NCBI GenBank assembly: GCA_964396845.1
Contig: CAYNGH010000002.1
Span: 17,760 to 81,759, forward strand
Direction: 5' to 3'
Length of the DNA: 64,000 nucleotides
Source: an uncultured bacterium
Lineage (GTDB): Bacteria > Vulcanimicrobiota > JAJTBE01 > CAYNGH01
Made by a program: the position numbers and the translations under genes. Under the pieces are notes generated by a model, which had not been told where the DNA came from, made no database searches, and saw nothing but the letters and a program-made list of their open reading frames with translations. How positions within the stretch are numbered: position 1 is the stretch's first letter; each line of letters starts with the position of its first letter. This document shows, one piece after another, positions 2,113 through 45,376 of the stretch.

Positions 2113-2127
2113 TCACCAACTGCAGAA

Positions 2128-2559
2128 TTATTTTCCAATGTCCAGTGCCCGCAGGAACATTTTCTTGGCTTCGTTAAAAGTCGTAAGATTCGCCTGGTAT
2201 GATCGGGAAGCAATGGTGGAAGCGACCATTTCATCAAGGATATTGATATCTGGATAATCCACGAAACCATTTTCATCCGCCACGGGATGGCCGGGGTCAT
2301 ACACCCTCCGGGGTTGGGACTCCACCTCATATATCCCGTCAATGGCTACTCCCCTGTCGGGAAATTCCCGGAATCCCCGGAGATAAGATCCGAAGCTTCC
2401 CTGGATGGGAGTGGTGACAACCCTGCGGGCCTGATAAAGAAACCCATCGGCAGAACGGGGGGAATTGATATTGGCAATGTTTTCCGATATGACCTCCAGC
2501 CTGCGCCTTTCAACATCCAGGGCGCTTCCGCTGGTATGAAGAGCATCAAACATTCCCAT
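2128..2559 (-). CDS. flgC: Flagellar basal-body rod protein FlgC
   Basis: 143 aa; MFDALHTSGSALDVERRRLEVISENIANINSP N-terminus and SYQANLTTFNEAKKMFLRALDIGK C-terminus are FlgC signatures. Confidence 0.9.
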   Translation of the reverse strand: MGMFDALHTSGSALDVERRRLEVISENIANINSPRSADGFLYQARRVVTTPIQGSFGSYLRGFREFPDRGVAIDGIYEVESQPRRVYDPGHPVADENGFVDYPDINILDEMVASTIASRSYQANLTTFNEAKKMFLRALDIGK

Positions 2560-2560
2560 C

Positions 2561-2974
2561 TTATTTGCCTCCTGTTATCGCCGTGGAGATCATCCGGTAT
2601 TTCCTTGCCAGCAGATCCGATGCCGCCCGATAAGTCAGGGAGTTGACAGTCTGGCTTATCATCTCTTCCTCTTCGGATCGGCGAACATTGCGAAGATGAA
2701 GCCGTAAAAACTGGCCGTCAAGATGAAAAGCCTCGTCATCCCTCAGGGACTGGGCCGGATAATGATCCTGATGGGTTGCCTCCAGGCCGGGATAGAGAAA
2801 ATCTCCCTGCCGGGCATCCCTGAGAAGCCCTATAAAATCAACATCCTGGGCCTGAAAGCCGGGGGTTTTCATGTTTGCCACATTATTTGAAAGGTAACGC
2901 TGACGAAGGTCTATCACATCCATCATGCGTCGCAGGCCCCTTGAACCCTCAGTTGTTATGAATCCGCCATTCAA
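2561..2974 (-). CDS. flgB: Flagellar basal-body rod protein FlgB
   Basis: 137 aa; rod-protein N-terminal motif (LRQRYLSNNVANMKTPGF), position next to flgC. Confidence 0.85.
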   Translation of the reverse strand: MNGGFITTEGSRGLRRMMDVIDLRQRYLSNNVANMKTPGFQAQDVDFIGLLRDARQGDFLYPGLEATHQDHYPAQSLRDDEAFHLDGQFLRLHLRNVRRSEEEEMISQTVNSLTYRAASDLLARKYRMISTAITGGK

Positions 2975-3008
2975 TCTAATCCCTCCTAAGAATTTCCCAC
3001 AAACGCGG

Positions 3009-3329
3009 TTACATCTGCATACGCATAATCTCCTGGTATGCTTCCACTGCTTTATTTCTCACCTGCACTGCCAGCTTCAAAGACAAAAATGCCTCCTCCA
3101 TGTCAATCACAACCTTGTGGATGCTGTCGGTATCGCCAACGGAAAAACGTTCTGCTGATTCTGCTGCTTTGATCTGCATATGGTTTACGTTTTTAAACGC
3201 CTCCTTGATTGGATTGAATTTCTGATGACCTTCTCCGGGGGATAATCCCCCAGGGGGCTTTAGAATCCCCGTCCTGTCGGGGATAAGGTTGTTGACATCA
3301 CCAATGATGTTGACTGGACTGATATTCAT
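3009..3329 (-). CDS. fliE: Flagellar hook-basal body complex protein FliE
   Basis: 106 aa; C-terminal LAVQVRNKAVEAYQEIMRMQM matches the FliE signature; SD GAGGGTGA upstream. Confidence 0.8.
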   Translation of the reverse strand: MNISPVNIIGDVNNLIPDRTGILKPPGGLSPGEGHQKFNPIKEAFKNVNHMQIKAAESAERFSVGDTDSIHKVVIDMEEAFLSLKLAVQVRNKAVEAYQEIMRMQM

Positions 3330-3665
3330 CTGCTCACCCTCTAATCGGCATACCTGCTGGAGTTACTGGTTTTCCACTGCTGTCGTTATTTACAGAGTCA
3401 ACCATGGATCCTTTGTGTTAAATTGACCAGATAAGTCAAACCAATTGTTAATACTATGGCCTGTAGTCCAATAACAATCGAATACAGATCAATTTATCCC
3501 GAAATACCCTGTGTTGACACTTAAACCTAAAGGATTAGGAAAATCATACTAAAGTATTATTTAATCAAATTGGTTTTGGGCGAAGAACAGGTCTGCCGGT
3601 GTTATTGGAGGAGTTGTGAAGGATGCAGAAGAAAGATAAAAAAAACCGGGAAGGTTATTGACACA

Positions 3666-6600
3666 ATGAATATCAATTTTGACGATCTGTCTGCTGAAGC
3701 AAGAACCGACAAAGCCAGCCTTTATCTTCTGATATGCCAGAAAGCCATGGAGGCCTTTTCTGCAAACTCGGTTTTTTTTATAAGGGCATCAGGCGACGGA
3801 GAACTGAATGTGGAAAGCTCCATCGGCAAGGATCCTGAGGAAAGGCTATATAAAGACGCTCTTCTTCCCATCGTGGAAAAAGGGGTGTATGAAAACCGGG
3901 CTCCTATGATTGTAACCGATACATCCAAGGATCCACGGTTTCTTGTTCATTACAAATCAGAACTTCCCGGTTACTCACTGCTTTCATTTCCCATAATCAC
4001 CAGGGATATGGTCACAGGGATTTTAACCCTTTACCGACCTCCGGGGAAGGCATTCGGCAGCAACTCTATCGGCAGAATCCACAAGTTTTCCGGCTGGGCA
4101 GGACAGCTTCTGGAACGGGGGCTTCAGCTGGAGTCATTTCGTCACAATCAACAGAAACTTGACATATTGAGCCGCCTGACCCGCACCATATCTTCTGTTC
4201 AGGAATTGGACAAGGCTGCGGAGTTTACCAGCAGTATCATATCAGAGGTCTTAGGAGTCGATTGCCGTGTGGTTTTTTTCAAGGATGACCAGGACTGGAA
4301 CCACCTGTCCCAGGACATCCGCAGAATCCTGGCCCGGGGTGTTCCATCGGTAACCGGCAGAAACAACGAAGGGCGCCAGTTAGTGGCCCCCATAACATAC
4401 CAGGAGCTGATGCCCGGATACCTGGAGATTTGCGGAAGAGAGGTCAGGGATTTCACAGACCTGGCCAAGACTGTTTCCATCCTCCTGGGATCCACTGCCC
4501 GGAGGATCCTCTTAGATGAGGAGATTGATTCCAACCGGGACAAGATAGAAGCCCTGGAAGAGATTGCCAACTATGAACTTTCCGGAGTTCTTTCATCATC
4601 ATCGGATCTTGACACCATTCTGGATTCCACCCAGGAGCTTATTGTTCACCTCCTGCGGGTGGAAAGGGTCAACGTGATGCTTTATGACAACACCACAGAA
4701 ACTCTTAAAGTCGCCAAATACTGGGGAATTGACGATCGTCCTTTTGGCCGGGAGGTCCTCAGCATTGGAGAAGGCCTGGCAGGACATGCCCTGTTGACCG
4801 GAAAGCCCCAGTATAAGCGCAGTGAACCTGACGGCATCTTTGTGGAATCGCCCCAGGGACAGGAAGAAGTCCGTTCTCTTGTTTCCTACCCCATGATTGT
4901 GGAAGGACGCAGGGTAGGGGTTATAAATGTTGGGAGCATCTACCACGACAAGATTTTTGATGAGCAGGACATCCGGATTGTATCCCTTATTGCTTCCAGA
5001 GCAGCCCTGGCCCTGGAAAACTCCTACCTTGCCCAGGAACAAAAACAGCTGATTCTTGAAAAGACCGACAACAACAAAAAACTCAAGGAAAAAAACCTTC
5101 AACTGACAGAACGGGGGAGAAGACTCTCGGAAACAACCCGGAAACTTCAGTTATCTCTCAAGGCTACCGAGAGAATCAACACCCGGCTGGCTCAGCTCAA
5201 CCGACTTTCAAACCGGATCATCGGCAGCCGGCATCCCGGCTACATAATGGATTCAGCCCTGGAATTCACAGAAAACCTCGTCCCCCGGCATGCCAGGGTC
5301 ATATCCCTGGTCACCTTCACCCAGGATGGAGGCGCCGAACAAGTGCGCATTGCCCAGAACGTCCCCGGCAGATACGCCCTGTTTCTCAGAAAGTTTTTCA
5401 ACAACATGCCCCAGTCCCTTTACAGAGTTCTTGTTCAGGAAAAAAAGAGCATAATTCTCCACGATTTCCGCAGTCATCCCGATGTGGAAAAACTCCGGCT
5501 GATGCAGGAACTCCGTTCCTTCTACTGTTTTCCCCTTTTCAACAACGAAAGAACCTTTGGCACATTGATACTGGGGAGCACAAAAGAACATCTCCTGGAT
5601 GATGAAGATATTGAATTTGTTTCAGCCATGGTGAACCAGGTAGCTCTATCCCTGGACAATGCCGACAAGTATTCCGAGATGCGCCGGCGTTCGGATATGC
5701 TCTCTCAGCTTAACCAGCTTACCGGTGAGATTATTTTTTCCCGGGAAAAGGGCAACCGTATGGATCCCCTGGTGGAAATGACCTGCAAACTGATGGATCA
5801 GCAGTTCGGCATTCTTCTGCTTTATAACCGGTGGGGACAGCTGGAGGTAAATGCCCGGTATGGCCGGCAGGACATATTCGACGAACATCTTAAAAATCAG
5901 GAAATCCAGATGATTATCGAAGAAGTAATCCGCCGGAGGCAGATATATTATTCTTCCACCGACTATGAACAGCTGGTGAAACGTTACTCCCTTCTGGCCC
6001 GGACGGGGATTAAATCCCTGGTGATCCTGCCTCTGATTTCCAAGGGAAACCCTATCGGAGCAATGCTGGTAAGCTCCGACAATCCCCAGGCCCACACCAA
6101 GACCATTCTTGAATACTACAAGCTTTTAGCCTCCCATCTGGCCCTGACCATAGACAACGCCCTTCTGATGTCCCGGATCCTTCTGGAGAAGGATCGCATC
6201 GACTCGGTCTTTGAGAGCATGAAAGAAGGGGTTGTTTCCATCGACTGGGAGCGGAAGATAACGGCCTTCAACCGTGCAGCGGTGGAAATCACCGGTTATT
6301 CCGAGGAAGAGGCTCTGGGCAAGTTCTGTCACGAAATATTCCGGTGCAAGGACACTCCCGGTGAGAAGTGTGTTGATGTTTGTCCCCTGATGGACCTGCT
6401 CAACTCCATGGCCCAGGAGCCTGCCGCGGGCCGTAACGAGGGAAAATTTAAAATGAAGGACGGAACGTGGCGGGACTTGATGGTTACTTCTTCACTGCTG
6501 TCACAAGACGGCGATCCCGTAGGAGGGGTGCTGGTATTCCGGGACATTACCCAGGAGAAGGCTTTCCAGGCCAGGCGTTCCGATTATCTGGCTGCAATTT

Positions 6601-7289
6601 CCCACGACATTTTTACTCCCCTGACAGCCATGAAGGGGTATGTCACAACCCTTCTGCTTCATCAGGATCGTTTTGATGAAAACATGCAGAAGGAATTTAT
6701 GAGGGTCATCAACAGCGAAATTGATCGAATGACCCGGCTGTTATACAATCTTATGAGCCTGTCCCGGATGGAATCAGACAAACTGCAGGCTGTCCCCACC
6801 CCGCAAAGCCTTGAGGGACTGATTCAAAAAATCGTGGATCTCTACTCCCTGAGCGCAAGAAACCACGATATTGCATTAGATCCCTCCGTTGGGGAAATGC
6901 CCTCGGTTTATGCTGATCCCGACCAGGTGGAACAGATCCTGAGCAATCTTTTAAGCAACGCCATCAAGTATTCCCCCGGGGGTGGAAAAATCATAATTCG
7001 CGCCAGAGAAGAACAAGATGGAATGATAGCTGTATCAGTGAGGGATCATGGAATAGGTGTCGAGGAAAAGGACCTGGATCGGATTTTTGATCGTTACCAG
7101 CGGGTTATCACAAAGAAATCCAGGGCAGTATCAGGAATGGGGCTGGGGCTTTTCATAACAAAAGTACTCACGGAAATGCAGGGAGGAACTATATGGGCCG
7201 AAAGGTGCCATGACGGCGGGACCCTGTTCACCTTTACCCTGAGAAAATTCGGCCCTGACATATTTGATGACGATGAGGATGAAGAATGA
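3666..7289 (+). CDS. Multi-GAF / PAS sensor histidine kinase (HisKA + HATPase_c), acidic C-terminal tail
   Basis: ORF 3570..7289; preferred start ATG 3666 (MNINFDD, GGGAAGG SD). The Cys-rich 32-aa N-terminal extension is probably not translated. Several GAF-like segments, a coiled coil, a PAS segment (VVSIDWERKITAFNRAAVEITGYSEEEALG), an H-box (ISHDIFTPLTAMKGY) and N/G1/G2 boxes (LLSNAIKYS, RDHGIGV, GMGLGL). Confidence 0.85.
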   Translation: MNINFDDLSAEARTDKASLYLLICQKAMEAFSANSVFFIRASGDGELNVESSIGKDPEERLYKDALLPIVEKGVYENRAPMIVTDTSKDPRFLVHYKSELPGYSLLSFPIITRDMVTGILTLYRPPGKAFGSNSIGRIHKFSGWAGQLLERGLQLESFRHNQQKLDILSRLTRTISSVQELDKAAEFTSSIISEVLGVDCRVVFFKDDQDWNHLSQDIRRILARGVPSVTGRNNEGRQLVAPITYQELMPGYLEICGREVRDFTDLAKTVSILLGSTARRILLDEEIDSNRDKIEALEEIANYELSGVLSSSSDLDTILDSTQELIVHLLRVERVNVMLYDNTTETLKVAKYWGIDDRPFGREVLSIGEGLAGHALLTGKPQYKRSEPDGIFVESPQGQEEVRSLVSYPMIVEGRRVGVINVGSIYHDKIFDEQDIRIVSLIASRAALALENSYLAQEQKQLILEKTDNNKKLKEKNLQLTERGRRLSETTRKLQLSLKATERINTRLAQLNRLSNRIIGSRHPGYIMDSALEFTENLVPRHARVISLVTFTQDGGAEQVRIAQNVPGRYALFLRKFFNNMPQSLYRVLVQEKKSIILHDFRSHPDVEKLRLMQELRSFYCFPLFNNERTFGTLILGSTKEHLLDDEDIEFVSAMVNQVALSLDNADKYSEMRRRSDMLSQLNQLTGEIIFSREKGNRMDPLVEMTCKLMDQQFGILLLYNRWGQLEVNARYGRQDIFDEHLKNQEIQMIIEEVIRRRQIYYSSTDYEQLVKRYSLLARTGIKSLVILPLISKGNPIGAMLVSSDNPQAHTKTILEYYKLLASHLALTIDNALLMSRILLEKDRIDSVFESMKEGVVSIDWERKITAFNRAAVEITGYSEEEALGKFCHEIFRCKDTPGEKCVDVCPLMDLLNSMAQEPAAGRNEGKFKMKDGTWRDLMVTSSLLSQDGDPVGGVLVFRDITQEKAFQARRSDYLAAISHDIFTPLTAMKGYVTTLLLHQDRFDENMQKEFMRVINSEIDRMTRLLYNLMSLSRMESDKLQAVPTPQSLEGLIQKIVDLYSLSARNHDIALDPSVGEMPSVYADPDQVEQILSNLLSNAIKYSPGGGKIIIRAREEQDGMIAVSVRDHGIGVEEKDLDRIFDRYQRVITKKSRAVSGMGLGLFITKVLTEMQGGTIWAERCHDGGTLFTFTLRKFGPDIFDDDEDEE

Positions 7290-7312: not shown

Positions 7313-7750
7313 CTATTGAATTTTTCCCCGGAAGGTCTTTGATATGACCTTCTTTATCATCAAGGCAGCATCTATAGGCTTAAAGGGCTTCACGATAAAA
7401 TACTTGGCCCCGTTGACAATGGCTTCCTTGACCTTGTCCTGATAACCCAGGGAGCTTATCATGATGATTGTGGCATTGGGATCGATGGAAACAAGGTGTT
7501 TGACTGCTTCAACCCCGGTCATGTTGGGCATCACAATATCCAAAGTCACAATGTCGGGACGTGTTTTCTTATAAACCTCAATGGCCTGAAGGCCGTCTTC
7601 TGCTTCTCCCACCACCTCGCCCTTCATCAGTCGAACAACAATCTTCAGACTCCGCCGGATAAATTCAGAGTCATCCACAACCATGAATCGAAAAGGGGAG
7701 CCATCCTTCTTGAATATCTGCGCCTCGCTGTTAGAGGTATCAATAGTCAT
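7313..7750 (-). CDS. cheY: CheY-like single-domain response regulator
   Basis: 145 aa receiver domain (MVVDDSEFIRRSL..., DIVTLDIVMPNMTGVEAV..., conserved K in FIVKPF); last gene of the che operon. Confidence 0.8.
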   Translation of the reverse strand: MTIDTSNSEAQIFKKDGSPFRFMVVDDSEFIRRSLKIVVRLMKGEVVGEAEDGLQAIEVYKKTRPDIVTLDIVMPNMTGVEAVKHLVSIDPNATIIMISSLGYQDKVKEAIVNGAKYFIVKPFKPIDAALMIKKVISKTFRGKIQ

Positions 7751-7768: not shown

Positions 7769-8275
7769 TCAGTTTGCCTTTATTTTAAGAGCAATGTTCA
7801 CATTCAGATCCCCGTGGGGTGTGCTCAAGGGGATAATTATAGTATCAAGGGTCGAGTCGGTGGTCTGCATATCCTTACCGCATAAAAGCACCGGGGGAGT
7901 GATGTTGAACTTGCTTCCGCCGTCATTCAGGGTGGTTATGGCCTTGCCCACGATGATGTTGGCCAGTTCGTTGATGGTTGCCTTTGCAAGGCTGTTGAAG
8001 GAATCCAGCTCCTCATAATTCATGGCTCCGGCAATAGTCCTGGCAGATTCTTCGGACATATCCAGGATAAATCTCCCCTCAACCTCCCCGATAAGGCCGA
8101 TGATGACAGCCACTCCATTCATGGGAACCGGCGATTTCTTCATCACCGGCTTTCCCGGCGTTATAGGGCCTTCAAGCATCTCCTTGAGAACATCATAAGC
8201 GCCCTGGGCAAAGGGCTTGGCATATTTTTTTACCATTTGCATTCTCCCTTCATACAGTTTCCAGAATACCGGCAT
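7769..8275 (-). CDS. cheX: CheC/CheX-family chemotaxis phosphatase (CheX-like)
   Basis: 168 aa; has the CheC/CheX consensus E-x-x-N-I-x-x-G (INELANIIVGKA); size and single motif fit CheX. Alternative start at the second Met (8242) would reduce the overlap with the upstream gene. Confidence 0.65.
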   Translation of the reverse strand: MPVFWKLYEGRMQMVKKYAKPFAQGAYDVLKEMLEGPITPGKPVMKKSPVPMNGVAVIIGLIGEVEGRFILDMSEESARTIAGAMNYEELDSFNSLAKATINELANIIVGKAITTLNDGGSKFNITPPVLLCGKDMQTTDSTLDTIIIPLSTPHGDLNVNIALKIKAN

Positions 8276-10121
8276 TAGACTTGAAGAAGGACAGAGGATT
8301 GATCACCAGCACTACCCTGCCATCTCCCATAACTGTAGCGCCGATGACATAATCAGTGTCGAAGAAGAGATCGTCAAGCTTTTTTACCAGAACCTTGTCT
8401 TCTCCCAGAACGCCATCTACAAGGATTGCCGCGTACCTGTCACTGTCGGATATTATCACCGACATCCGTCCCGTTTCATCCCCATCAACGGGGTCAGATT
8501 CCATCATATCACCCTTCAGGCCCACCTCCATCAGAGTCACAACTCTGTCGGCATAACAGATCACTTTTTGTCTGTTCACAGTCTTGACCTGTCGGGATTT
8601 TAGTTTCAGAATCTTTTCGATGCAGGCCACCGGAACGGCAAATATGTTATCTCCCTTTTTAAAATAGATAACTTCAACCCTGGATGAATCGATGGGAACC
8701 TGAAAACTGCAGAGTCCCCGGTTTTGATTATTATGATACACATTCAGCCGGCCACTGATGGAATTGAGGATATTGTTCACATGATCTATTCCCTTGAAGC
8801 TGAATTTCTCATCATCGCATATTAGGGTAATTATAATATCAGAATCCCGGTATTGAGATAAAATCTTTATATTCAGCGATTCTTTTCCTGATGACAACCT
8901 CTGAATGATATCGGCGACAATATTATCCAGAACAATCTCAATGGCAACCGCCAGTTTTTTCCACATTTCAAGATCAATCTCAATGTCTGTTTCTTCTATA
9001 TTCAGTTTCACATCGGTATTGTGCTTCCGGGACAGGTCCCTGGCCAGCCTGTTGAAGCGGGCCAGTTCCTTGTTCAGTGACACCTTCCTTATGCTTATGA
9101 CTTTTTTTTCCAGCAAAAGGGTGAGTTTATCCATATTTCGAGAAAGCAGATTCAGTTTCTTTATAACAGGATGATATGGATTTGAACGGCTAATCTTGTC
9201 GATCAGGTTAATAAAATGAGATTTTCCCACAAACATTTCTTCAACCAGGCTCATCATCTCGTCAATATTGTGGATGGGAATCCTTACGAAGAAGTTTTCT
9301 TCTTCGCTTCTTTCTGGTTTCTCCGACATTGGTCTTTCTGTCGGGGCTTCATTGACATCAACGGCAGGCCCTATGGGTCTGTTTTCCTGTTTTCCTCGGC
9401 TTTCCTGAATGACAATGCCAATCTCTGTCATCATGGGAATTTCTGTAAGCTCCAGAACAGTATCAATATTTTCCCGTGGATCAAAAAGAATTAGGGTAAA
9501 GAAATCCACTTCCTCGATGGCAGGATCCTCTGGCGAGGGTTCAACCCAGGCCACATCACCAATCTCCTCAAGATTGGACACGACAAGAAATGCGCTGGAT
9601 GACTTCATCAGGCAATCAGAGTCAAAAGGCACCTTGATAACCAGAACGCTTCTGCCTTCTTCCATTCCTTTTCGTGCAGTTTCTTCAATATTGCGGGGCA
9701 TCGTCAGAGCTGTCGCTTCACAGCTTTGTCCTGTCTTTCCCGCCGGCGACTCTTTGAGGTTTTTCAGTAGTCCTGAATAATTTTTTGGCAATGGGCTGTT
9801 GGAAATTTCTGCGTGGGAGAGGGCTTTCAGGCAATCGGTAGCTTCAAAGAACAAATTGATTTGTTGAGAATCGCATTTTATTTTACCATTGCGTATCTGG
9901 TCAAGACGATCCTCCAGGGCATGGGCCAGCATATTGGTGGCATCCAGATTCATCATTCCCGCGGATCCCTTTAAGGTGTGCACCGGTCGAAATATTGAAT
10001 TTATTACCGCAGTGCTTGATGGATCTTTTTCAAGGATCAAGAGGTTGGAGTCGATGGCATCAAACAGCTCTTCGACCTCATCCTGGAAAGTCTGCATCAG
10101 CTCCATCATGTATGAGTCCAT
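8250..10121 (-). CDS. CheA-like protein with intact Hpt (P1) domain, dimerisation (P3)-like region, degenerate ATPase (P4)-like region and CheW-like P5
   Basis: P1 motif VHTLKGSAGMM with the phosphorylatable His. A P3-like segment (FVRIPIHNIDEMMSLVEEMFVGKSHF). Where N/G1/G2 boxes are expected the sequence reads IVLDNIVADII / ICDDEKFSF with no GxGxG. C-terminal CheW-like domain (IFAVPVACIEKI..., GDGRVVLVINP). Confidence 0.75.
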   Translation of the reverse strand: MDSYMMELMQTFQDEVEELFDAIDSNLLILEKDPSSTAVINSIFRPVHTLKGSAGMMNLDATNMLAHALEDRLDQIRNGKIKCDSQQINLFFEATDCLKALSHAEISNSPLPKNYSGLLKNLKESPAGKTGQSCEATALTMPRNIEETARKGMEEGRSVLVIKVPFDSDCLMKSSSAFLVVSNLEEIGDVAWVEPSPEDPAIEEVDFFTLILFDPRENIDTVLELTEIPMMTEIGIVIQESRGKQENRPIGPAVDVNEAPTERPMSEKPERSEEENFFVRIPIHNIDEMMSLVEEMFVGKSHFINLIDKISRSNPYHPVIKKLNLLSRNMDKLTLLLEKKVISIRKVSLNKELARFNRLARDLSRKHNTDVKLNIEETDIEIDLEMWKKLAVAIEIVLDNIVADIIQRLSSGKESLNIKILSQYRDSDIIITLICDDEKFSFKGIDHVNNILNSISGRLNVYHNNQNRGLCSFQVPIDSSRVEVIYFKKGDNIFAVPVACIEKILKLKSRQVKTVNRQKVICYADRVVTLMEVGLKGDMMESDPVDGDETGRMSVIISDSDRYAAILVDGVLGEDKVLVKKLDDLFFDTDYVIGATVMGDGRVVLVINPLSFFKSNAGILETV

Positions 10122-10231
10122 TCAAGTCCACCATTTTCACTATTTTTTTGCAATTATTGATGTTGTCGGGATCCTGATATCTCTCATCATAATAATCGGC
10201 CAAAAGAGCATCCATTAAAGACGGCTTTAAA

Positions 10232-12187
10232 TCATGATCCTGCGGATTTTACCATGTCCTGAAGATTTATAACCAGAACTACGCTTCCGTCGCCCTGAAT
10301 ACAAGCACCGGCAATTTCTCTGATATTTCTCAAATAATTACCTATGGTCTTGATGGCAATCTTCTGTTTGCCAACAATTTCATCAAAACCCACCGCCATT
10401 TTTCTGTTGAACCCATTTACTACCGCCACAAGAAACGTGCCATCTTCATGGTTTTCCTGGGGACTGATTTCCATCACATCACAAAGCTGTCTGAAGGGGA
10501 TTATGCTTCCGTTGTATGTAATAACCCTCTTGTGGAGTATCGGTTTTAGCTGTTCCTTTCTGATTTTCATGATTCTTTGAATTCCGTCGGTGGGTATGGC
10601 AAACATCTCACTGCCGGCCCGGACAATCAATGTATCAACCATCGAAAGGGAAAGAGGAAGTCGAATGCTGAAGGTTGTGCCTCTTCCCTTTTCTGTGTTG
10701 ATTTTTATGGTTCCGCCATGTTTTTTAATGCTGGTGCGAACTACATCCATTCCAACACCCCTGCCGGAAATTTCCGTAACTCGTTCTGCAGTGCTGAAGC
10801 CGGGCATAAATATGTAGTCGAGGATTTCCTGTTTTGACATGAACTGAGCCTTCTCCATGGACACAAGCCCTTTTTCCACGGCCTTGTTCCGAATAACATT
10901 GTGATCAATACCCCTGCCATTGTCTTCAATCTCAATCACCACTGAGTTGACATCGTTAAATGCCTTGAGCCATACGCTTCCAGCGGGGTTCTTGCCCTTT
11001 CTTCTTCTTTCATCAGGATAATCGACTCCGTGATCCACGGCGTTTCTGATAAGATGAACCAGGGGATCCTTCAGGCTTTCAAGAACAACCCGGTCAATTT
11101 CTGTGCTTTCTCCGATGATCCTCACGTTTATCTGTTTATCCTGTTCTGATGCCAGAGTTTCGATAACTTTTCTAAACTGCCGGAACAGTGATCTTATGGG
11201 CATCATTCGTAATGATAACAGCTGGTTGTAAAACTGTTCCGTCAGCTTTTCAAAGAGTATTGCCAATCCGTTCATTTCCTTGCCATATGCCGTCAGCATG
11301 CGATCCTGGGTAATCTCCTGCTTCAAGTTCAATATCTTCATTTTAAGGGTAATCATTTCCCCGATGCTGTTCATCAAGCCATCAACTTTTTTTATGTTCA
11401 CCTTCATATTTGACTGAAGTGGAGAATCGCCGATTTTACCCCTGCCATTGTCATTGCGATATTTCTCGCCATTGGTGCTCTCCTGGGCGGAAGAATCATC
11501 CCACTGATTCACAAACTCCCTGATTTCCCAAATCAATGTTTTTATTTCCTCAATTATTGATGTTATACCATGTCCATTCTCTCCTGCAATGATATCCTCA
11601 AGGTTGTTTTCGATCTTCTCTGCAGTCAGATTCAGACGTTCATGTCCGATGAAAAGTGTAGCTCCCTTAATGCCTTTCATGGCGCGCAATATATTGGCAA
11701 CCACGATTATATCCGATGAAGGAGTGAACATGGGAAGATATTCTTGAACTGTTTTAATATGTTGTTCGGCAACTTCCTGAAACAACTCCATCTGGCTTTT
11801 CGACTCATCCCTGCCTGGAATTTTGGCACCTGCCAAGTTGTCCTCCGCCGATTCTCTGGAAAGATTGTCGATTTTCTGTTTCAAGACAGCAATTGACATG
11901 ATCAGCTTGTCATACAGGCTCAATCCCTTGTCCTGGGTAGATTTTTTCATTTCAAGAACCAGCTCTCTGACCTGATCAATCTCTGTCATCAAGCCATCCC
12001 GTCCCAACATGAAAGCACCTTCATAAATACTCCCTAAAACCATGGAAAGCTCTTCTAACAACTTCTTATCCGATGGATCCCGGTTGAGCATTTTAATTAA
12101 AACATTGATCTCATCAACATGCCCCATGGACTCGTCCATAAAATCCTTGAGTATTTCCAGTTGTAATTTTCTTTGAAATTTAATCAT
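10232..12187 (-). CDS. cheA: CheA histidine kinase with complete catalytic (P4) and CheW-like (P5) domains but two Hpt-like domains lacking the phospho-accepting His
   Basis: N box HLIRNAVDHG, G1 IEDNGRGID, G2 GRGVGMDVV and a CheW-like C-terminus are present. The Hpt-like segments read LGSIYEGAFMLG and RAMKGIKGATLFIG, aligning to AAHSIKGGAGTFG with His replaced by Gly and Lys. Confidence 0.85.
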   Translation of the reverse strand: MIKFQRKLQLEILKDFMDESMGHVDEINVLIKMLNRDPSDKKLLEELSMVLGSIYEGAFMLGRDGLMTEIDQVRELVLEMKKSTQDKGLSLYDKLIMSIAVLKQKIDNLSRESAEDNLAGAKIPGRDESKSQMELFQEVAEQHIKTVQEYLPMFTPSSDIIVVANILRAMKGIKGATLFIGHERLNLTAEKIENNLEDIIAGENGHGITSIIEEIKTLIWEIREFVNQWDDSSAQESTNGEKYRNDNGRGKIGDSPLQSNMKVNIKKVDGLMNSIGEMITLKMKILNLKQEITQDRMLTAYGKEMNGLAILFEKLTEQFYNQLLSLRMMPIRSLFRQFRKVIETLASEQDKQINVRIIGESTEIDRVVLESLKDPLVHLIRNAVDHGVDYPDERRRKGKNPAGSVWLKAFNDVNSVVIEIEDNGRGIDHNVIRNKAVEKGLVSMEKAQFMSKQEILDYIFMPGFSTAERVTEISGRGVGMDVVRTSIKKHGGTIKINTEKGRGTTFSIRLPLSLSMVDTLIVRAGSEMFAIPTDGIQRIMKIRKEQLKPILHKRVITYNGSIIPFRQLCDVMEISPQENHEDGTFLVAVVNGFNRKMAVGFDEIVGKQKIAIKTIGNYLRNIREIAGACIQGDGSVVLVINLQDMVKSAGS

Positions 12188-12582
12188 TATGAAGCCTTTC
12201 TACCTCTGCTACCAGAAATCAACATCTCAATATATGCAAGCAGAGAATCAGGATTTGGAGGTTTTACCAAGTAAAGATCCGCTCCAAGACGGATGCCTTT
12301 CCGTTGATCTTCTTCATTGGCCTCGGTTGTAAGTATAATGATTGGCAAATACTGATAGGCCTTCTCTTTCCTGATTGATTTTATCAGTCTGTAGCCGTCC
12401 ATTTTTGGCATATTTATATCAGTAATCACAAGATCATAATTACTGCTGTAGATTTTTTCAAGTGCCGACAACCCATCATTGGCAGTGTCAACCTCATAAT
12501 TATTCAGCTTCAGGATATATGCCAGGATATCCCTGATTGTCCTGGAGTCATCCACCACGAGAATTGTTGCCATCAAACACAC
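12187..12582 (-). CDS. cheY: CheY-like response regulator
   Basis: 131 aa receiver domain (ILVVDDSRTIRDIL, DLVITDINMPKMDGY, YLVKP); 1-nt overlap with the downstream cheA start. Confidence 0.8.
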   Translation of the reverse strand: MCLMATILVVDDSRTIRDILAYILKLNNYEVDTANDGLSALEKIYSSNYDLVITDINMPKMDGYRLIKSIRKEKAYQYLPIIILTTEANEEDQRKGIRLGADLYLVKPPNPDSLLAYIEMLISGSRGRKAS

Positions 12583-12611: not shown

Positions 12612-13439
12612 TTATTGTTTCTGATAAATAATTCCGTTGCTAAAACGGCAAATTTTGAATGCTGTGCTAATTCTGCTCATAGACTCGGAATGTCCCAGAA
12701 AAATATGACCCTCGCTTCTGAGGCTGTTGTAAAGATGCCCCACCACCTGTCTGCGGGCTTTCTGGTCAAAGTAAATCAGAACATTTCTGCAAAAGACAAT
12801 ATCAATATTTCTAATATTTGCAGCCTGCTGGCTATCCATCAGGTTCAGATAAAAGAAACGAACCAGCTTCTTCAATCTGGGATCAACCTCATATGTGCCA
12901 TTGTTTCCAATGAAATATTTGGAAAGATAGTAGCTGTGGACTTCCTTGAGAGCCCTGGCAGAATACTTGCCCTTCCTTGCAGTATCAAGGACCTGATGAT
13001 TGATGTCACTGGCCAGAACCTGAATGTTCCAACCATCGGTGTCCGGGAGGTTCTCCAGTATATTAATGGCTATGGAATAAGGTTCTTCTCCGGTGGAACA
13101 AGCTGCGCTCCATATTTTGAGGGTCTTGCTGTTCTGTTGCTTTTTTTCCAGAATCAGCCTCGGCAATAACTCTTCTCCCAATATCTTCATCTGTGCAATG
13201 TTTCGGAAGAAGTATGTTTCATTTGTTGTTATTATTTCAATAAGCCTGTTGACCTCATTTCCCCGCATGTCAAGACGGAGAAGGCGGTAATAATCCTTAA
13301 GGGTTTCACAGTTTAATTCTTCCATTCGACGGGCCAGTCGTCGGCCCAGCATATACTTCTTGCTGGGGGAGAAGAATATGCCGGTCTTGTCATAAATAAA
13401 ATCCCGAAACAATCTGAAGTCATCCGGATTGAGATTCAT
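12612..13439 (-). CDS. cheR: Chemotaxis protein methyltransferase CheR
   Basis: 275 aa; CheR N-terminal helical domain plus SAM-dependent MTase motifs (KIWSAACSTGEEPYSIAI, VLASDIN..., IVFCRNVLIYFD). Confidence 0.9.
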   Translation of the reverse strand: MNLNPDDFRLFRDFIYDKTGIFFSPSKKYMLGRRLARRMEELNCETLKDYYRLLRLDMRGNEVNRLIEIITTNETYFFRNIAQMKILGEELLPRLILEKKQQNSKTLKIWSAACSTGEEPYSIAINILENLPDTDGWNIQVLASDINHQVLDTARKGKYSARALKEVHSYYLSKYFIGNNGTYEVDPRLKKLVRFFYLNLMDSQQAANIRNIDIVFCRNVLIYFDQKARRQVVGHLYNSLRSEGHIFLGHSESMSRISTAFKICRFSNGIIYQKQ

Positions 13440-15376
13440 TCTGCATCACCATCCTCTCCCAGGACGCCAAGAATCATCCGGGCGGTGCTTTGAACCTCGT
13501 AATCCCTGGAATATAGCATTCTTCTGATGGCTTCCATACCCTGACTTCCACCGATTCTCTGGAGTCCTTCCAGGGCGGCCACCTGAACAATTGATGAAGA
13601 TTCAACATCAAGACACTGGTTGAGCACTTCGACACAACGGGGATCCTTCAAATTACCAATGCCCCGGACGGTTTCATATCTCACCCAGACATCATTATCA
13701 CCCAGCAATGGAACCAGGTAATCCAGTGCATCGGGAGGCGCCAGCCGACACAGAACATTAATCGCCTTCATCCTGACTTCGTTGTGTTCGTCATTCAAAA
13801 CAGGTATTAAATATTCCACAGGCAGGGGGCCCGGCATTCTTGAGAGAACTGCTATGGCATATTTTCGAACCTGCCAGTTGCTGTCATTTAATGCGATGAT
13901 GATGTCATCAAGATATTCCGCCGAAAGAAAAGCATGGGTCAATCCATAGGCTGCGGTGGATCGGACTTTTTCATCCAAATCATGAAGAAGCGACACAAGC
14001 TTCCGGTTCACGTGGCTTCCGCCAATTTTAGAGAGGGCTTCAGCAGCTTCAAATCTCACGTCTTCATACTCATCCCGCATTAATTCAAACAGATCCTCCA
14101 GGGCCTCACAAATTTTCATATCACCCATGGCCTTTGCCGATGCCCTTCGGACGTGCCCCAGAGAATCATGCAGTAGCGGAATAAGACGGCCTTTAATCGA
14201 CTCAGCACCGATTTCTGTCAGGGCATTCAATGCCTCCAGCCTGATATCGTCATCCTGGGAATCCAGAACAGACAGGAGAAAGGGGATTGGCAACTTTGAC
14301 GAGGATTGACCAAGAACCCTTATGAAATACCCGGGATTCTTGGTTTTACTAAAGTTGAACTGTTTTAAAATCGACCTGACACACTCTTCACCAGGCTTAT
14401 TAAAAATCTCCCGGATTATCCCAGGAAGCTCATCTCTGGACATGGCAAAACTGACCACGGGGTCAATCAGCTCATCTGGCCCCATCAATGACAGAATGTA
14501 TGCCGACATGCCACTGATGTCCCGATCCTTGCTTTCCAGGTTTGACAAGATGATTGAGATGTTGTTGTGCAGGTGATCCAGGCTGTCCCGGTCAAATTCT
14601 AACTGAAACCGGCGACATATATTTCCCACTGCAAAGATGATGTAGGAATCCACCAGGCCCTTTTCCTTGCCCAGCCTAACTATCAGCAGTTTTACAGTGT
14701 CCATGTTCCCTATTCGAGAAAGCTTTTTTAGCACAGCCAGGGACACTGCAGCACTTCCTTCATCAAGAACATCAAGTAGAACGGGAATAATGCCGGGATC
14801 ATCAATATTTGACAAAGCTTCGATTGCAAAAATTTTCACCCACGGGTCTTTTTCCTGTTGAATCTTCTTAATCACCGGCTGGACTTTCCGGGGATCATTT
14901 ATTTTACTCAGGCTTTCCAGAGCTGCTGTGCACACATTAATATCCCCATCTTTCAGAAGCGGAATCAAATGTTCAACACTGTTTCCACTGCCGATATCCC
15001 CGAGAATATTTATTGCAAACTTCCTGACATCACTGTCCCTGTCATAAATTAAAGGAGTAACCCCAGGCAGGGCAGATTCTCCAATCTGACCCAGGATTGC
15101 AATGGCATCGTTTCTCAACCTGACATCACTGTCACGAAGGTATTCCACAAGAAGAGCAATAACCTGAGGATCCTCTGTCGCCGACAATGTATCAATTAAT
15201 ACCTCCCGTGAGCCTCCCCGGACATGACGAAGTTGATCAACAAGTTTTGAATATTCTTCTTGTTTAGTTTCACCAACAGGCTTATTATCAAACACCTGTG
15301 AACTTTTCCGGTCATGATAGTCCGATTCCCGTATGACTTTTTCTGTTTTTGTACCTTTCAACCTCAACACTTCCAA
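13436..15376 (-). CDS. HEAT-repeat (PBS-lyase-type) protein embedded in the che operon
   Basis: 646 aa made almost entirely of ~30-aa repeats of the form D-x-D/N-x-x-VR-x-x-A-x-x-AL-x-x-IG; stop codon overlaps the cheR ATG (ATGA). Confidence 0.7.
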   Translation of the reverse strand: MEVLRLKGTKTEKVIRESDYHDRKSSQVFDNKPVGETKQEEYSKLVDQLRHVRGGSREVLIDTLSATEDPQVIALLVEYLRDSDVRLRNDAIAILGQIGESALPGVTPLIYDRDSDVRKFAINILGDIGSGNSVEHLIPLLKDGDINVCTAALESLSKINDPRKVQPVIKKIQQEKDPWVKIFAIEALSNIDDPGIIPVLLDVLDEGSAAVSLAVLKKLSRIGNMDTVKLLIVRLGKEKGLVDSYIIFAVGNICRRFQLEFDRDSLDHLHNNISIILSNLESKDRDISGMSAYILSLMGPDELIDPVVSFAMSRDELPGIIREIFNKPGEECVRSILKQFNFSKTKNPGYFIRVLGQSSSKLPIPFLLSVLDSQDDDIRLEALNALTEIGAESIKGRLIPLLHDSLGHVRRASAKAMGDMKICEALEDLFELMRDEYEDVRFEAAEALSKIGGSHVNRKLVSLLHDLDEKVRSTAAYGLTHAFLSAEYLDDIIIALNDSNWQVRKYAIAVLSRMPGPLPVEYLIPVLNDEHNEVRMKAINVLCRLAPPDALDYLVPLLGDNDVWVRYETVRGIGNLKDPRCVEVLNQCLDVESSSIVQVAALEGLQRIGGSQGMEAIRRMLYSRDYEVQSTARMILGVLGEDGDAE

Positions 15377-15393: not shown

Positions 15394-16458
15394 TTAAATT
15401 TTTAGCAATGACACAAGAATTTCTGTAACTTGACTGTCGGGAACAATTATGTCCGCAAGACCTGATTCAATAACAGACCTGGGCATTCCATAAACAGTGC
15501 ATGTGCTGGAATCCTCAGCTATGGTAAGACCTCCTGATTTGCGGATTTCCCGCATACCCCGGGTGCCGTCACTGCCCATTCCAGTCATTATGATTCCCAC
15601 TGTATCGCTTCCATACACCTTTGCCACCGATTCCATCATGATGTCCACCGAAGGCCGATAAATCACATCTTCAGGAAATCGACTCAGGCGGATCACCACT
15701 CCCTTGGAAAGTGATGTGGTAACTGCTGTCAGATGTTGATCCCCCGGGGCAATATAACACACGGAACGTCTGACTCTCTCGCCATTTCTGGCTTCCTTCA
15801 CATTTATCCCACAGATGCTGTCAAGCCTGTTGGCCAGGGAGCTGGTGAACCCCGCAGGCATATGCTGGGTCAAAAATATCGGCGCTGGAAAATCAGCAGG
15901 AATCATCGGAAGAATCTCAAGAAGCTTTCTGGGCCCTCCGGTAGATATGCCAAGAGCAATGGCAGGGTTGATAAAATGCCTTTTGAATGCATTCATGTTC
16001 CCAGTTTCGGCAACAGGCTCTCTATAAATCGTTACACTCCCTGATTTCAAAGGCTTCTTCCTTCTTCTCAAGGCAGCAGAACGAATCTTGATAATCAGAT
16101 CCCTTCGAAAATTATCAACATCCTGTCGATTCGACATAAAAGGCTTGGTGATAAAATCAGAATGCTCATCAAGTGATGTCTTCAAGTCAAGCTCTGCTTC
16201 CTGCCTTGACATTGAACCGATGAAAATCACCGGAATCCTTAACACCTGCCGAAGCTGTTCGATAATACTCCTTCCGTTGTTCCTGAAAAGCTCCATATCC
16301 AAAGTCATCACATCAGGATTGAGGGACGCAGCCTTTTCAAGAGCCTCATCGCCGTCCCCTGCAAGACCTGCAACAACAATCCGGCGATCGCTTTCCAGAA
16401 GCCTCTTGATCCGTTTGCGAATCATTTTGGATTCATCAACAACAACAACAGATATCAT
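15394..16458 (-). CDS. cheB: Chemotaxis response regulator protein-glutamate methylesterase CheB
   Basis: 354 aa; N-terminal receiver, C-terminal methylesterase with ALGISTGGP, TGMGSDG and AEDSSTCTVYGMP motifs. Confidence 0.9.
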   Translation of the reverse strand: MISVVVVDESKMIRKRIKRLLESDRRIVVAGLAGDGDEALEKAASLNPDVMTLDMELFRNNGRSIIEQLRQVLRIPVIFIGSMSRQEAELDLKTSLDEHSDFITKPFMSNRQDVDNFRRDLIIKIRSAALRRRKKPLKSGSVTIYREPVAETGNMNAFKRHFINPAIALGISTGGPRKLLEILPMIPADFPAPIFLTQHMPAGFTSSLANRLDSICGINVKEARNGERVRRSVCYIAPGDQHLTAVTTSLSKGVVIRLSRFPEDVIYRPSVDIMMESVAKVYGSDTVGIIMTGMGSDGTRGMREIRKSGGLTIAEDSSTCTVYGMPRSVIESGLADIIVPDSQVTEILVSLLKI

Positions 16459-16507: not shown

Positions 16508-18460
16508 TCAACTGGCCTTCCCTTCATCGGCACTGTCTGGCTCCAGACATGTCAGCTCATCATCCAGACAGGAAACACCGCCGAGATTTGTTCCACTCAA
16601 GTCTTCAACAGTATTCAAATCCTCCGGGGACTGTTGGATATTATCCCCTCCCGAAGAATCATCAATCTCACCAATCTTATCAATCTCATCAATCTCATCA
16701 TCGTCATCAGAACCCATTTGAGCCAGCAACTGCTCCTGCAATGCTCTCAACTGCTCCTCCTCAGACAGCTCGATAGTGGAAAAATCTGTCTTCCCTTCAT
16801 CTGATCCAGATAAAGAATCATCACGGGAATCTGAATCCACCACAGGCAATAAATCATCAGCAACCTTCTCTTCCAAGCCGACTTCCCATAAATCATCCTC
16901 GGCACCAGGGGCATCGGAATTCTTATGGACAACATCAATTGCTGAATCATCATCAATAACATCCTGGGGCGATTCCTGTTGCAGGTTTAATATGCCGGCC
17001 ACATTTAAAATTATAACAAACCGCTGACCGCCATTCATTTTTCCAATTCCTTCGATAAACGAAGCATCGATTTCTGAGATTATCTCCGGGGCAGATTCAA
17101 TGCTGTCGGCGGTCAACTGAATCACTTCAGAAACCGAGTCAACTATCAAGCCGGAAACCCGGTTCTGACAGGTCACCACAACAATGCGATCGGAACCGCT
17201 GGGTTCTTTCCAATCAAGCCCGAATCTGCTGCGAAGATCAATCACCGGCAGAACATCTCCCCGCAGGTTGACCACACCCCGGACATAATCTGGTGAGCCT
17301 GGCACTGCAGTTATATCAGTCAGGCGGATTATTTCCCGGACATTTCTGATATCAACACCAAATTCTTCATTGCCAAGCCTTAAGCTGACCATCTGCCTGA
17401 TTTCCAATGAACCTCTCTCCTTTGCCGGATGCCGGTTGGCCCCGACTGCATCCGCTGATTTTTCATCAATCCCGGAAATATCCGAACTGCAGGTGATACT
17501 ATCTGAATCAAGAATCAAAACAAGCCGGTTTCCGCCCTCAAGCTTTCCTATTCCCTGAAGCCTGCCATCCAGGGCAACAGTTTCCGGCGGATCCTCAATC
17601 CGATCCCTGGGAATACTGACCACCTCATTGACCATATCCACCAGAACCCCCGACAGAACTCTTTCGCCATTCACATCCCGGCGAAGGATGAGAATCCGGG
17701 ATCGCTTGTCTATGGGCGACTCTGTCATGCAAAAATAACTGCAAAGATTAATAACAGGCATCACCTTTCCCCGGATGCTTATGATACCGGAGATAAATCC
17801 CGGAGCCTCAGGAACTCTGGTAATCCGGGGAATCTTGATAATCTCCTCCACCTTGTTGATATCAACGGCATACTCCTCGGCCCCCAGCTGAAAACTGACC
17901 ATCTGAACATCATGATTCAATCCTGCCGACTCCGAATCGTCAACGCCGTCAATCCCTGCCGGATAATCAAAAGAAGAATCCATATCATCGGAAACATCAT
18001 CTATTCTGGTTATTGTATCGAGATTTAATATGGAAATTAATCGCTGGCCGGATTTGTGTTTGCAAATCCCCTTCAGACTGCCGGAGCCTGACTGGTATAG
18101 TGACGGGGGAGGCAGTTCGACTTCCCCGGAATTAATCCTGAGGACTTCGGAAACCGAATCCACAACCAGGCCCACTGGGGTATCGTCATAACTTGTCACC
18201 ACAACCCGGTTGGAAGGCCCATGGTGAATCTCCTCCATGTTCAGGCGTTTCCTGGTGTCAATGATTGGCAGGATCTGTCCCCGGAGATTGACAACCCCCT
18301 CCAGATAATGAGGAGCCCTGGGCACCATAGTTATGCCCGGCAACTTGATAATCTCCTGAACATTTCCAATCTCAATGCCGTATTCTTCTCCACCAAGACG
18401 AAATGTTACAAGCTGTTCAATGTTTCTATTTTCTGACAGAGCCGGGGACATATGAACCAT
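16508..18460 (-). CDS. Triple CheW-domain coupling protein with acidic C-terminal tail
   Basis: 650 aa; three successive CheW-like domains (each containing LRG-x-xxPVIDLR-like and GxxVDxVxEV motifs) followed by a D/E-rich tail (DDDDEIDEIDKIGEIDD...). Confidence 0.8.
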   Translation of the reverse strand: MVHMSPALSENRNIEQLVTFRLGGEEYGIEIGNVQEIIKLPGITMVPRAPHYLEGVVNLRGQILPIIDTRKRLNMEEIHHGPSNRVVVTSYDDTPVGLVVDSVSEVLRINSGEVELPPPSLYQSGSGSLKGICKHKSGQRLISILNLDTITRIDDVSDDMDSSFDYPAGIDGVDDSESAGLNHDVQMVSFQLGAEEYAVDINKVEEIIKIPRITRVPEAPGFISGIISIRGKVMPVINLCSYFCMTESPIDKRSRILILRRDVNGERVLSGVLVDMVNEVVSIPRDRIEDPPETVALDGRLQGIGKLEGGNRLVLILDSDSITCSSDISGIDEKSADAVGANRHPAKERGSLEIRQMVSLRLGNEEFGVDIRNVREIIRLTDITAVPGSPDYVRGVVNLRGDVLPVIDLRSRFGLDWKEPSGSDRIVVVTCQNRVSGLIVDSVSEVIQLTADSIESAPEIISEIDASFIEGIGKMNGGQRFVIILNVAGILNLQQESPQDVIDDDSAIDVVHKNSDAPGAEDDLWEVGLEEKVADDLLPVVDSDSRDDSLSGSDEGKTDFSTIELSEEEQLRALQEQLLAQMGSDDDDEIDEIDKIGEIDDSSGGDNIQQSPEDLNTVEDLSGTNLGGVSCLDDELTCLEPDSADEGKAS

Positions 18461-21996: not shown

Positions 21997-22002
21997 ATCA
22001 CC

Positions 22003-23307: not shown

Positions 23308-23530
23308 CCCCACTCCTCCATAAGGCAATAATTTCACAGCACCTCTGATTATAACAAAAAATCCACAGAATGGGAAGGTTTTTCTGAATCAATGCATCAA
23401 GACACCATGAAAGCAGAGAAAGACGGTCTAAAATGAAAATGCCTCTTCTTGCAGGGATAATTGTTTATAAAATTAATAATAATCATATAATTAATCAGGA
23501 TTGCGATTTTAACTGAGAAGGCGGTATATT

Positions 23531-44995: not shown

Positions 44996-45376
44996 ATGGC
45001 AGAGGAAAAAAAGATAGTTCTCATTGTGGAGGACGAACATCATGTCCGGGATATTGCCCGGATTGTTCTTGAGCTTGAGGAATTTGAAGTGTGGGAGGCT
45101 GAAAACGGCAGGCTGGCCCTGGACATGCTCTCAGACCGGCTTCCTGATTTAATCATCACCGATATTATGATGCCGGAAATGGACGGGGTGGAGTTTTTTC
45201 TATCCCTGAAGGAATCAGACAGGACATCCTCCCTGCCGGTTATAGTGCTGACGGTAAAGAGCCAGTTTGAGGACATCAAATACGCATCCCTTCTGGGGAT
45301 GGATGAGTATATGACAAAGCCCTTCGACCCCAGGGACCTGGTAAAAAAGGTGAGGGAACTGCTAAAGGATAAATGA
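44996..45376 (+). CDS. Single-domain response regulator (receiver)
   Basis: 126 aa; LIVEDEHHVRDI, DLIITDIMMPEMDG, YMTKPF; stop overlaps the mutS ATG (ATGA). Confidence 0.8.
   Translation: MAEEKKIVLIVEDEHHVRDIARIVLELEEFEVWEAENGRLALDMLSDRLPDLIITDIMMPEMDGVEFFLSLKESDRTSSLPVIVLTVKSQFEDIKYASLLGMDEYMTKPFDPRDLVKKVRELLKDK

Follow-up and report, generated by a model that had tools for sequence, protein, structure and literature searches.

A 64,000-nucleotide stretch of contig CAYNGH010000002.1 (positions 17,760 to 81,759, forward strand; hereafter the window, to which all coordinates refer) encodes on its minus strand two neighboring CheA proteins with complementary defects, which are probably two halves of a single CheA activity: CheA-K (651 amino acids (aa), 10232-12187) retains a complete kinase core and has no acceptor His, while CheA-H (623 aa, 8250-10121) combines a canonical phosphotransfer end with a P4 domain that has lost its ATP-binding boxes. 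We consider it likely that His48 of CheA-H receives a phosphoryl group from CheA-K in trans, which, at the level of sequence, would be the most economical reading of such a pairing. Judging from the motifs, neither protein should be able to autophosphorylate alone. Both open reading frames and the complementarity of their defects had been pointed out in a preliminary description of this DNA; the frames were found at the above coordinates on the minus strand, and the defects proved to be real, family-wide and under constraint.

Domain composition of CheA-K and CheA-H

The kinase core of CheA-K was evident from Pfam matches to HATPase_c (2.3e-21), CheW (3.5e-19) and H-kinase_dim (7e-5) and from the alignment of its residues 260-645 with Thermotoga maritima CheA-289, which comprises P3-P5 (2e-86). 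The P3 hairpin (aa 259-325; 11213-11413, minus strand, as all domains of the two proteins) was delimited by the H-kinase_dim match at 260-315 and by the alignment with T. maritima P3, and is followed by P4 (aa 326-515; 10643-11212) and the CheW-like P5 (aa 516-651; 10235-10642). P4 aligned with the P4 structures 1i58/1i5d at approximately 1e-56 and has all boxes intact: the N box HLIRNAVDHG (378-387), G1 DNGRGID (422-428), the F box PGFST (462-466) and G2 GRGVGMD (475-481). The motif positions and Pfam thus agreed with the textbook N, G1 and G2 boxes and the CheW-like P5 reported previously. All parts expected of a CheA from P3 to P5 were therefore present in CheA-K, and what it lacked was a phosphorylatable His in the H-[ST]-x-K-G context.

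The N-terminal 232 residues of CheA-K were modeled by AlphaFold2 as two four-helix bundles with a disordered linker (mean predicted local distance difference test score, pLDDT, of 82.5, reaching approximately 85–90 within the helices of both bundles), a moderately strong prediction built on a 13-sequence alignment. In Foldseek, the bundle pair matched the designed proteins BRIC1/2 derived from tandem P1 domains (E 5e-5 to 3e-4), and a single bundle matched CheA P1, with target-normalized template modeling scores (TMt) of 0.78 for 1tqg and approximately 0.66 for 1i5n and 3kyj. In the model, the N-terminus of CheA-K has the Hpt fold, i.e. a four-helix bundle superimposable on CheA P1, albeit the Pfam Hpt score was below the threshold (18.6 bits vs. 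a cut-off of 24.6). The first bundle, pseudo-Hpt 1 (aa 1-116; 11840-12187), with predicted helices at 2-36, 41-60, 64-82 and 85-116, had a weak sequence match to CheA P1 2ld6 and carries Gly52 (codon 12032-12034) at the acceptor position. In the second, pseudo-Hpt 2 (aa 132-231; 11495-11794), where the sub-threshold Hpt match covers 134-196, this position is occupied by Lys171 (codon 11675-11677). The absence of the acceptor His from both Hpt-like segments, noted already in the preliminary description, was thereby confirmed by alignment.

CheA-H presents the opposite picture. Pfam recognized Hpt (4e-15, over VHTLKGSAG), P2 (9.8e-10) and CheW (6.2e-15), and gave no HATPase_c match. Its P1 (aa 1-105; 9807-10121) matched the P1 structures 1tqg, 2ld6, 1i5n and 3kyi and includes His48 (codon 9978-9980), His67 and Glu70. 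The CheY-docking P2 (aa 160-226; 9444-9644), also found in P0242 and P0243, had been overlooked earlier, while the canonical P1, P3 and P5 had been recognized correctly, as judged from Pfam and the alignments with T. maritima and Escherichia coli CheA. P3 (aa 275-340; 9102-9299) aligned with its counterparts from these two organisms over 279-340, and H-kinase_dim was detected in CheA-H relatives; P5 (aa 484-623; 8253-8672) is CheW-like. A P1 with the acceptor His, P2, P3 and P5 of a CheA were thus all found in CheA-H, together with a P4 from which the N, G1 and F boxes, G2 and the lid are gone and of which only the fold core is kept.

This degenerate domain, P4* (aa 341-483; 8673-9101), was defined by alignments, AlphaFold2 and Foldseek. 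In comparison with T. maritima and E. coli CheA, it lacks a stretch of approximately 50 residues with the ATP lid and both the F and G2 boxes. In place of the N box HLxRNxxDHG it has IEIVLDNIVADII, with IVLDNIVADII standing at the N box and DDEKFSF at the G1 position. The earlier claim that the ATP boxes are lost is consequently well founded. The Asn of IVLDN might be taken for a surviving N-box residue; this was rejected, as it is confined to the subclade of the window and all other family members lack it. Residues 338-485 were modeled as an alpha/beta sandwich (pLDDT 84.6), and the best Foldseek matches of P4* were the crystal structures of T. maritima CheA P4 (query-normalized score, TMq, of approximately 0.73), so that the degenerate domain still appears P4-like. 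Alignment and model together indicate that CheA-H combines, within one CheA, a phosphotransfer end that is live with a pseudokinase domain that still folds.

Distribution and conservation of the complementary defects

A search for relatives of the two proteins among 5.8 billion proteins showed that both families are extremely rare. Only nine proteins were of the CheA-H type, after which the score fell from 448 to 188 bits, into the ordinary CheAs; fourteen were of the CheA-K type without a Pfam Hpt match. An index-free search with the CheA-H profile, covering 1.84 billion cluster representatives, gave about six clusters that matched it uninterrupted, while ordinary CheAs broke at the lid; two new distant members recovered in this family (31–32% identity) had both the lid deletion and His48. 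No further family members were obtained when the CheA-H family alignment was run against species-representative genomes and metagenome contigs of the Joint Genome Institute (JGI), these scans giving ordinary CheAs with approximately 20–23% full-length identity or with the Hpt segment alone.

The lid deletion is common to every CheA-H relative, down to 31% identity, and His48, His67 and Glu70 are invariant throughout that family. In the CheA-K family, the acceptor column of pseudo-Hpt 1 is variable and never a conserved His, and in the second bundle the acceptor position is occupied by Gln (11 of 13 members) or Lys (2 of 13) within the conserved motif R-x-[LIVM]-[QK]-G-I-K-G-A, whose R168, G172, I173, G175 and A176 are invariant among the 13 members. 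No invariant N-terminal His was found across the 13 aligned CheA-K relatives, while 105 of the 106 ordinary CheAs retrieved alongside them carried H[ST]xKG. On these alignments, the pattern of complementary defects is far beyond chance and, since both defects are common to their whole families, it is not a product of local decay.

The retained and the defective domains differ in the degree of conservation, which was expressed as identity of the window protein with its closest relative and as the family mean. P4 is the most conserved domain of the CheA-K family (86% with the closest relative, 67% on average), followed by P3 (84 and 46%), pseudo-Hpt 1 (53 and 21%) and pseudo-Hpt 2 (45 and 27%), with the linkers at approximately 20 and 8–14%. 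In CheA-H, P1 (77 and 57%) is the best-conserved domain across distant members; the corresponding values were 86 and 55% for P3, 59 and 38% for P4*, and 20–25 and approximately 20% for the linkers. From these values, the dead domains of both proteins are evidently under constraint, weaker than that on the live domains. The suggestion that the pseudo-Hpt domains are kept under some constraint gained support in so far as their identity with the closest relative (45–53%) exceeds that of the linkers (approximately 20%) and they are predicted to form bundles.

Both proteins have lost catalytic motifs, which is what a functionless, decaying remnant would also exhibit. That one or both cheA genes are such remnants is, nevertheless, hardly credible: every relative has complete, uninterrupted reading frames, the defects recur at identities from approximately 66% down to 31–34%, and the remaining domains are strongly conserved, with even the dead ones above the linker level and predicted to fold.

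The loss of the canonical acceptor could also mean that CheA-K is self-sufficient and autophosphorylates a non-canonical residue, e.g. His143 or His182, in which case the two genes would simply be two CheAs. An alternative phosphorylatable His in CheA-K, the reservation made in the preliminary description, turned out to have some substance: His143 (codon 11759-11761), part of a Gln-His pair that opens the second bundle (AEQHIKT), is found in all but one of the 13 family members and His182 in all but two, and both lie in the well-predicted second bundle. Neither of them is invariant, however, and His143 aligns with a helix-A position (Leu19 in CheA-H) and not with the helix-B acceptor site. In addition, the canonical His is replaced in the family by Gln, and the Hpt score is sub-threshold. 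H48Q is the substitution used for a non-phosphorylatable E. coli CheA. Although an acceptor role of His143 is biochemically possible, we regard self-sufficiency of CheA-K as very improbable.

Origin of the two proteins

CheA-K and CheA-H have only 23% identity over P3-P5, and their nearest ordinary relatives are different. Those of CheA-K are two-Hpt CheAs encoded in cheB-HEAT-cheR-cheY-cheA clusters (36–40% identity over P3-P5), exemplified by the Maridesulfovibrio hydrothermalis CheA (P0198), which shares with CheA-K both the two-Hpt-P3-P4-P5 layout and the gene order cheB/HEAT/cheR/cheY/cheA. The M. hydrothermalis-type CheAs have a His in both Hpt domains (FRPMHSLKG and FRYFHNLKG), in contrast to the CheA-K family, in which it is lost in both; the pseudo-Hpt bundles are therefore remnants inherited from an ancestor with two Hpt domains. 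CheA-H, in turn, is closest among ordinary CheAs to P2-bearing ones, one of which is named and belongs to a metagenome-assembled genome of Eubacteriales. An origin by recent tandem duplication, with each copy then degenerating in a complementary way, was rejected on account of the low identity and the closer ordinary relatives of a different type for each protein, and the diverged tandem pair implied in the preliminary description has to be abandoned.

Gene neighborhoods and co-occurrence

Apart from the window, the only traced locus in which cheA-K and cheA-H adjoin is L002, the closest relative of the window (62–66% identity). Elsewhere they are located approximately 220 kb apart on one 7.6-Mb contig (ERZ21831104 ctg97552l), on two contigs of assembly ERZ21862269 or on two contigs of sequencing run SRR17235527. 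Five of the six traced CheA-H loci come from an assembly or sample that also contains a CheA-K relative, and this co-presence of two extremely rare families, correlative as it is, constitutes the main evidence suggesting a joint function. The two genes belong to different conserved modules: cheA-H is followed by cheX and then by cheY in every traced locus (L001, L002, L003, L114, L119), and cheA-K always ends the series receptor/triple-CheW/cheB/HEAT/cheR/cheY/cheA. The view of adjacency as the conserved state did not hold, since the cheA-H/cheX/cheY triad stands alone elsewhere.

Several of these facts weigh against a joint kinase. Apart from the frequent His143, the two proteins stem from different CheA lineages, no partner was traced for the CheA-H locus L003 (ERZ21862645) or for the most distant CheA-K loci L116-L118, and a complete CheA encoded elsewhere in the genome could serve either protein. 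Moreover, as the two genes are encoded apart in most relatives, their adjacency here could be secondary.

The same facts bear on the possibility that CheA-K and CheA-H operate in different pathways, with CheA-H as a kinase-dead scaffold or phosphate sink and CheA-K phosphorylating another Hpt protein; in a variant of this, CheA-H and CheX would drain CheY-P by reverse transfer, or a complete CheA from elsewhere would phosphorylate CheA-H. It would be in line with the isolated position of the triad, far from cheA-K, in four of the six traced loci and with the different lineages of the two proteins, and there are precedents for its elements: F9 chemotaxis components elsewhere have been proposed to cooperate with CheAs of another class (PMC9321776), and reverse phosphotransfer sinks are reported in Rhodobacter sphaeroides (PMC2924250). 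On the other hand, CheA-H, the sole candidate for a His substrate seen, matches CheA-K in its extreme rarity and in the assemblies where it occurs; its invariant His48, His67 and Glu70 and the status of P1 as its best-conserved domain fit a kinase substrate; and a simple sink would not need P3, P4* and P5. Overall, separate pathways seem unlikely, although clearly less so than decay or a self-sufficient CheA-K.

Some other genes accompany the modules. A hybrid REC-PAS-HisKA-HATPase kinase gene follows the cheA-H/cheX/cheY triad in L003 (13148-15007) and L114 (13169-15031), and GAF-containing signaling genes are located near the module in L001, L003 and, at another position, L002; these genes may represent additional inputs or outputs of the module. 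The HEAT-repeat gene between cheB and cheR is also present in most traced relatives and in the M. hydrothermalis cluster with the ordinary two-Hpt CheA (L002, L004, L005, L113, L118 and L115); the gene at the same position in L116/L117 had no recorded Pfam match. Flagellar genes flank the cheA-K modules of L005, L113, L116/L117 and L118, including flgH and flgI in the latter, and no recognizable flagellar gene was found in the cheA-K flank of L004.

Chemotaxis cluster of the window

The two cheA genes are the seventh and the eighth of a ten-gene chemotaxis cluster on the minus strand. It begins with a soluble, DosM-like receptor (18480-20429; two stretches of Pfam MCPsignal) devoid of transmembrane segments, whose signaling tips are at aa 184 and 484. 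Next comes CheW3, a triple-CheW protein (16508-18460; three stretches of Pfam CheW, 2.3e-107), carrying a C-terminal tail of approximately 150 acidic residues. These are followed by cheB (15394-16458), a gene for a HEAT-repeat protein of approximately 640 aa (13436-15376) and cheR (12612-13439), all identified by Pfam, with cheB and cheR keeping their order in all relatives, and by cheY (12187-12582; Pfam Response_reg 3.6e-31). The latter directly precedes cheA-K in all relatives, and its stop codon in the window overlaps the cheA-K start by one base (gap of -1).

Downstream of cheA-H, the cluster is completed by cheX of the CheY-P phosphatase family (7769-8275; Pfam CheX 1e-17, CheC 1.7e-7) and a gene for a CheY-type single-domain response regulator (7313-7750; Pfam Response_reg 2e-24) with the DD, D, S and K residues visible. 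The cheX product has the E-x2-N active-site motif (INELAN), as expected of the CheX family from its sequence. As listed, the cheX frame overlaps the end of cheA-H by 26 nucleotides (nt); the more likely start, however, is Met12 or Met14 (MQMVKKY), with either of which the overlap would vanish. The intergenic gaps within the cluster are small or negative, with the exception of the 110 nt between the two cheA genes, where a coding-strand scan revealed neither a promoter nor a terminator.

Beyond the chemotaxis cluster, the region 508-7289 holds fliE-flgB-flgC-fliF on the minus strand and, between these fli/flg genes and the cluster, the plus-strand gene for a 1239-aa GAF-PAS-HisKA-HATPase sensor kinase, as is also the case in L002. 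On the other side, the cluster is flanked by two genes for TPR-repeat proteins (20698-23337, minus strand) and, on the plus strand, by one for an ankyrin-repeat protein of 541 aa (23531-25156); a long ankyrin protein is encoded near the cheA-H triad of L001 as well, on the 7.6-Mb contig. Further away, a GGDEF diguanylate cyclase gene (48111-49298) sits between mutS (45373-47973) and mutL (49319-51202), all on the plus strand. Judged from MutS, the host appears to be a member of an uncultured lineage: the nearest relatives with a name (59–63% identity) come from metagenome-assembled genomes labeled Eremiobacteraeota, Vulcanimicrobiota or "Firmicutes".

Relation to F9-type arrays

The F9 class of chemotaxis systems is distinguished by a DosM-type soluble receptor with two signaling domains and a concatenated CheW3, and forms double-layered cytoplasmic arrays in Vibrio cholerae (PMC7534058, PMC9321776). 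A two-tip receptor and a triple CheW were both found in the window, and CheA-K appears to lie in an F9-type cluster, the class being judged from these two signatures, which the cheA-K cluster has in common with V. cholerae cluster I (DosM, CheW3, CheA1). No described V. cholerae F9 CheA without an acceptor His was found in the literature. In the partial F9 sets described so far, cheA is absent and a CheA of another class is thought to be borrowed (PMC9321776). In contrast to such sets, the F9-type CheA of the window is present, lacks the acceptor His and is paired with a His-donor CheA. Both the array type and a flagellar output are putative, the array being tied to flagellar genes genomically.

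Proposed mechanism of a putative bipartite kinase

In the reading preferred here, that of two genes for one CheA activity, CheA-K would bind ATP through its intact P4 and phosphorylate His48 in P1 of CheA-H in trans, as without an acceptor His of its own it needs an external His substrate, for which CheA-H is the only candidate seen. CheA-H, unable to bind ATP, would use P1-P2 to phosphorylate the CheY whose gene lies two positions downstream of its own, the second CheY and CheB being probable further recipients; CheX would then dephosphorylate CheY-P and reset the system. Because both proteins keep P5, they are expected in the same receptor array, presumably an F9-type cytoplasmic one made up of CheW3 and the DosM-like receptor with its two tips. 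On this view, a structural or regulatory function would account for the persistence of the dead P4 in CheA-H and of the Hpt domains without an acceptor in CheA-K.

Since P3 too is present in both proteins, the kinase would most simply take the form of a P3-mediated heterodimer, in which the normal trans reaction of CheA would run one way only. CheA dimers normally phosphorylate in trans, and in T. maritima phosphorylation failed for a partner subunit without P4, pointing to a requirement for two P4 domains (bioRxiv 10.1101/2021.08.17.456688). A need for two cooperating P4 domains would explain the folded dead P4 in CheA-H and favors the P3 heterodimer. Such a CheA-K/CheA-H heterodimer is possible, the alternative being a pair of neighboring homodimers within a single array, an arrangement proposed for R. 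sphaeroides. The role of pseudo-Hpt 2, in which Gln or Lys has replaced the His, is a matter of speculation: it may act as a non-phosphorylatable plug or as a docking element for P4, P4* or CheY. The preliminary description had also assumed a role other than phosphotransfer for the pseudo-Hpt domains. The most elaborate version, an obligate P3 heterodimer of two evolutionarily distinct CheA classes, an F9-type kinase subunit and a P2-bearing phosphotransfer subunit linked to CheX and CheY, in an F9 array wired to the flagellar motor, with the dead copies needed as P4 bodies and P1-like plugs, is put forward only tentatively and is, in our opinion, rather doubtful.

Comparison with known split and complementing CheA kinases

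The closest laboratory analogs of the window pair are the E. coli CheA heterodimers with complementary defects, composed of an acceptor-His mutant and an ATP-site mutant or of CheA-short with a kinase-dead CheA-long. They follow the same trans logic within a P3 dimer, in which P4 of one subunit acts on P1 of the other and two defective subunits can thus make up for each other. The difference is that the laboratory heterodimers consist of engineered mutants or of an internal-start product of one gene, while the window pair is a naturally fixed arrangement encoded by two genes of different ancestry. A CheA-like kinase made from two genes, one for the Hpt part and another for the kinase part, is also known in Synechocystis as PilL-N/PilL-C; there the gene is simply divided, no dead domains having been kept, and the system serves pilus-based motility. 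In the literature on split CheA and on CheW3/DosM, no description was found of reciprocal retained pseudo-domains or of a His-less F9-type CheA.

If the proposed function is true, the pair would offer a natural experiment on three questions: whether one P4 domain can be active only in cooperation with a second, what role is played by non-productive P1-P4 contacts, and how dimers that are asymmetric act inside arrays. It would also provide a concrete hypothesis for the output of F9-type arrays, in which the phosphoryl group leaves through the CheA-H/CheX/CheY module and the array is located among flagellar genes.

Split CheAs are rare (11 of 481 CheAs in one survey; PMC3591291) and are known mainly from one studied case, that of R. 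sphaeroides, where biochemical work has proven that CheA4 phosphorylates CheA3 and neither autophosphorylates alone (PMC3591291). Both are associated with the cytoplasmic receptor cluster (PMC6829392), and modeling in this organism links the CheA split to ultrasensitive, switch-like signaling (PMC3591291). CheA3 has P1 and P5 but no P3 and P4 and contains its own phosphatase region, and CheA4 is made up of P3-P4-P5 alone, with no P1 (PMC3591291). The likeness to this pair had been emphasized in the preliminary description, where the system was seen as evolved or retained in the present lineage. As to functional logic, the likeness probably stands: an ATP-binding P4 is present on one protein, and P1 with P5 on the other. 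It does not extend to the architecture, since the layout of the R. sphaeroides split CheAs was not found in the window pair. Unlike CheA3, CheA-H keeps P2, P3 and a folded dead P4; unlike CheA4, CheA-K keeps two folded dead Hpt domains; and the phosphatase, which in CheA3 is a region of the protein itself, is a separate CheX in the window. Nor can retention from a common system be upheld, as the different CheA lineages and the unrelated host lineage make the origin look independent of the R. sphaeroides pair. If the proposed function is correct, the window pair would be a second, independently evolved split CheA, in which nothing has been cut away and each partner carries a conserved and folded, though inactive, version of the domain that is active in the other.

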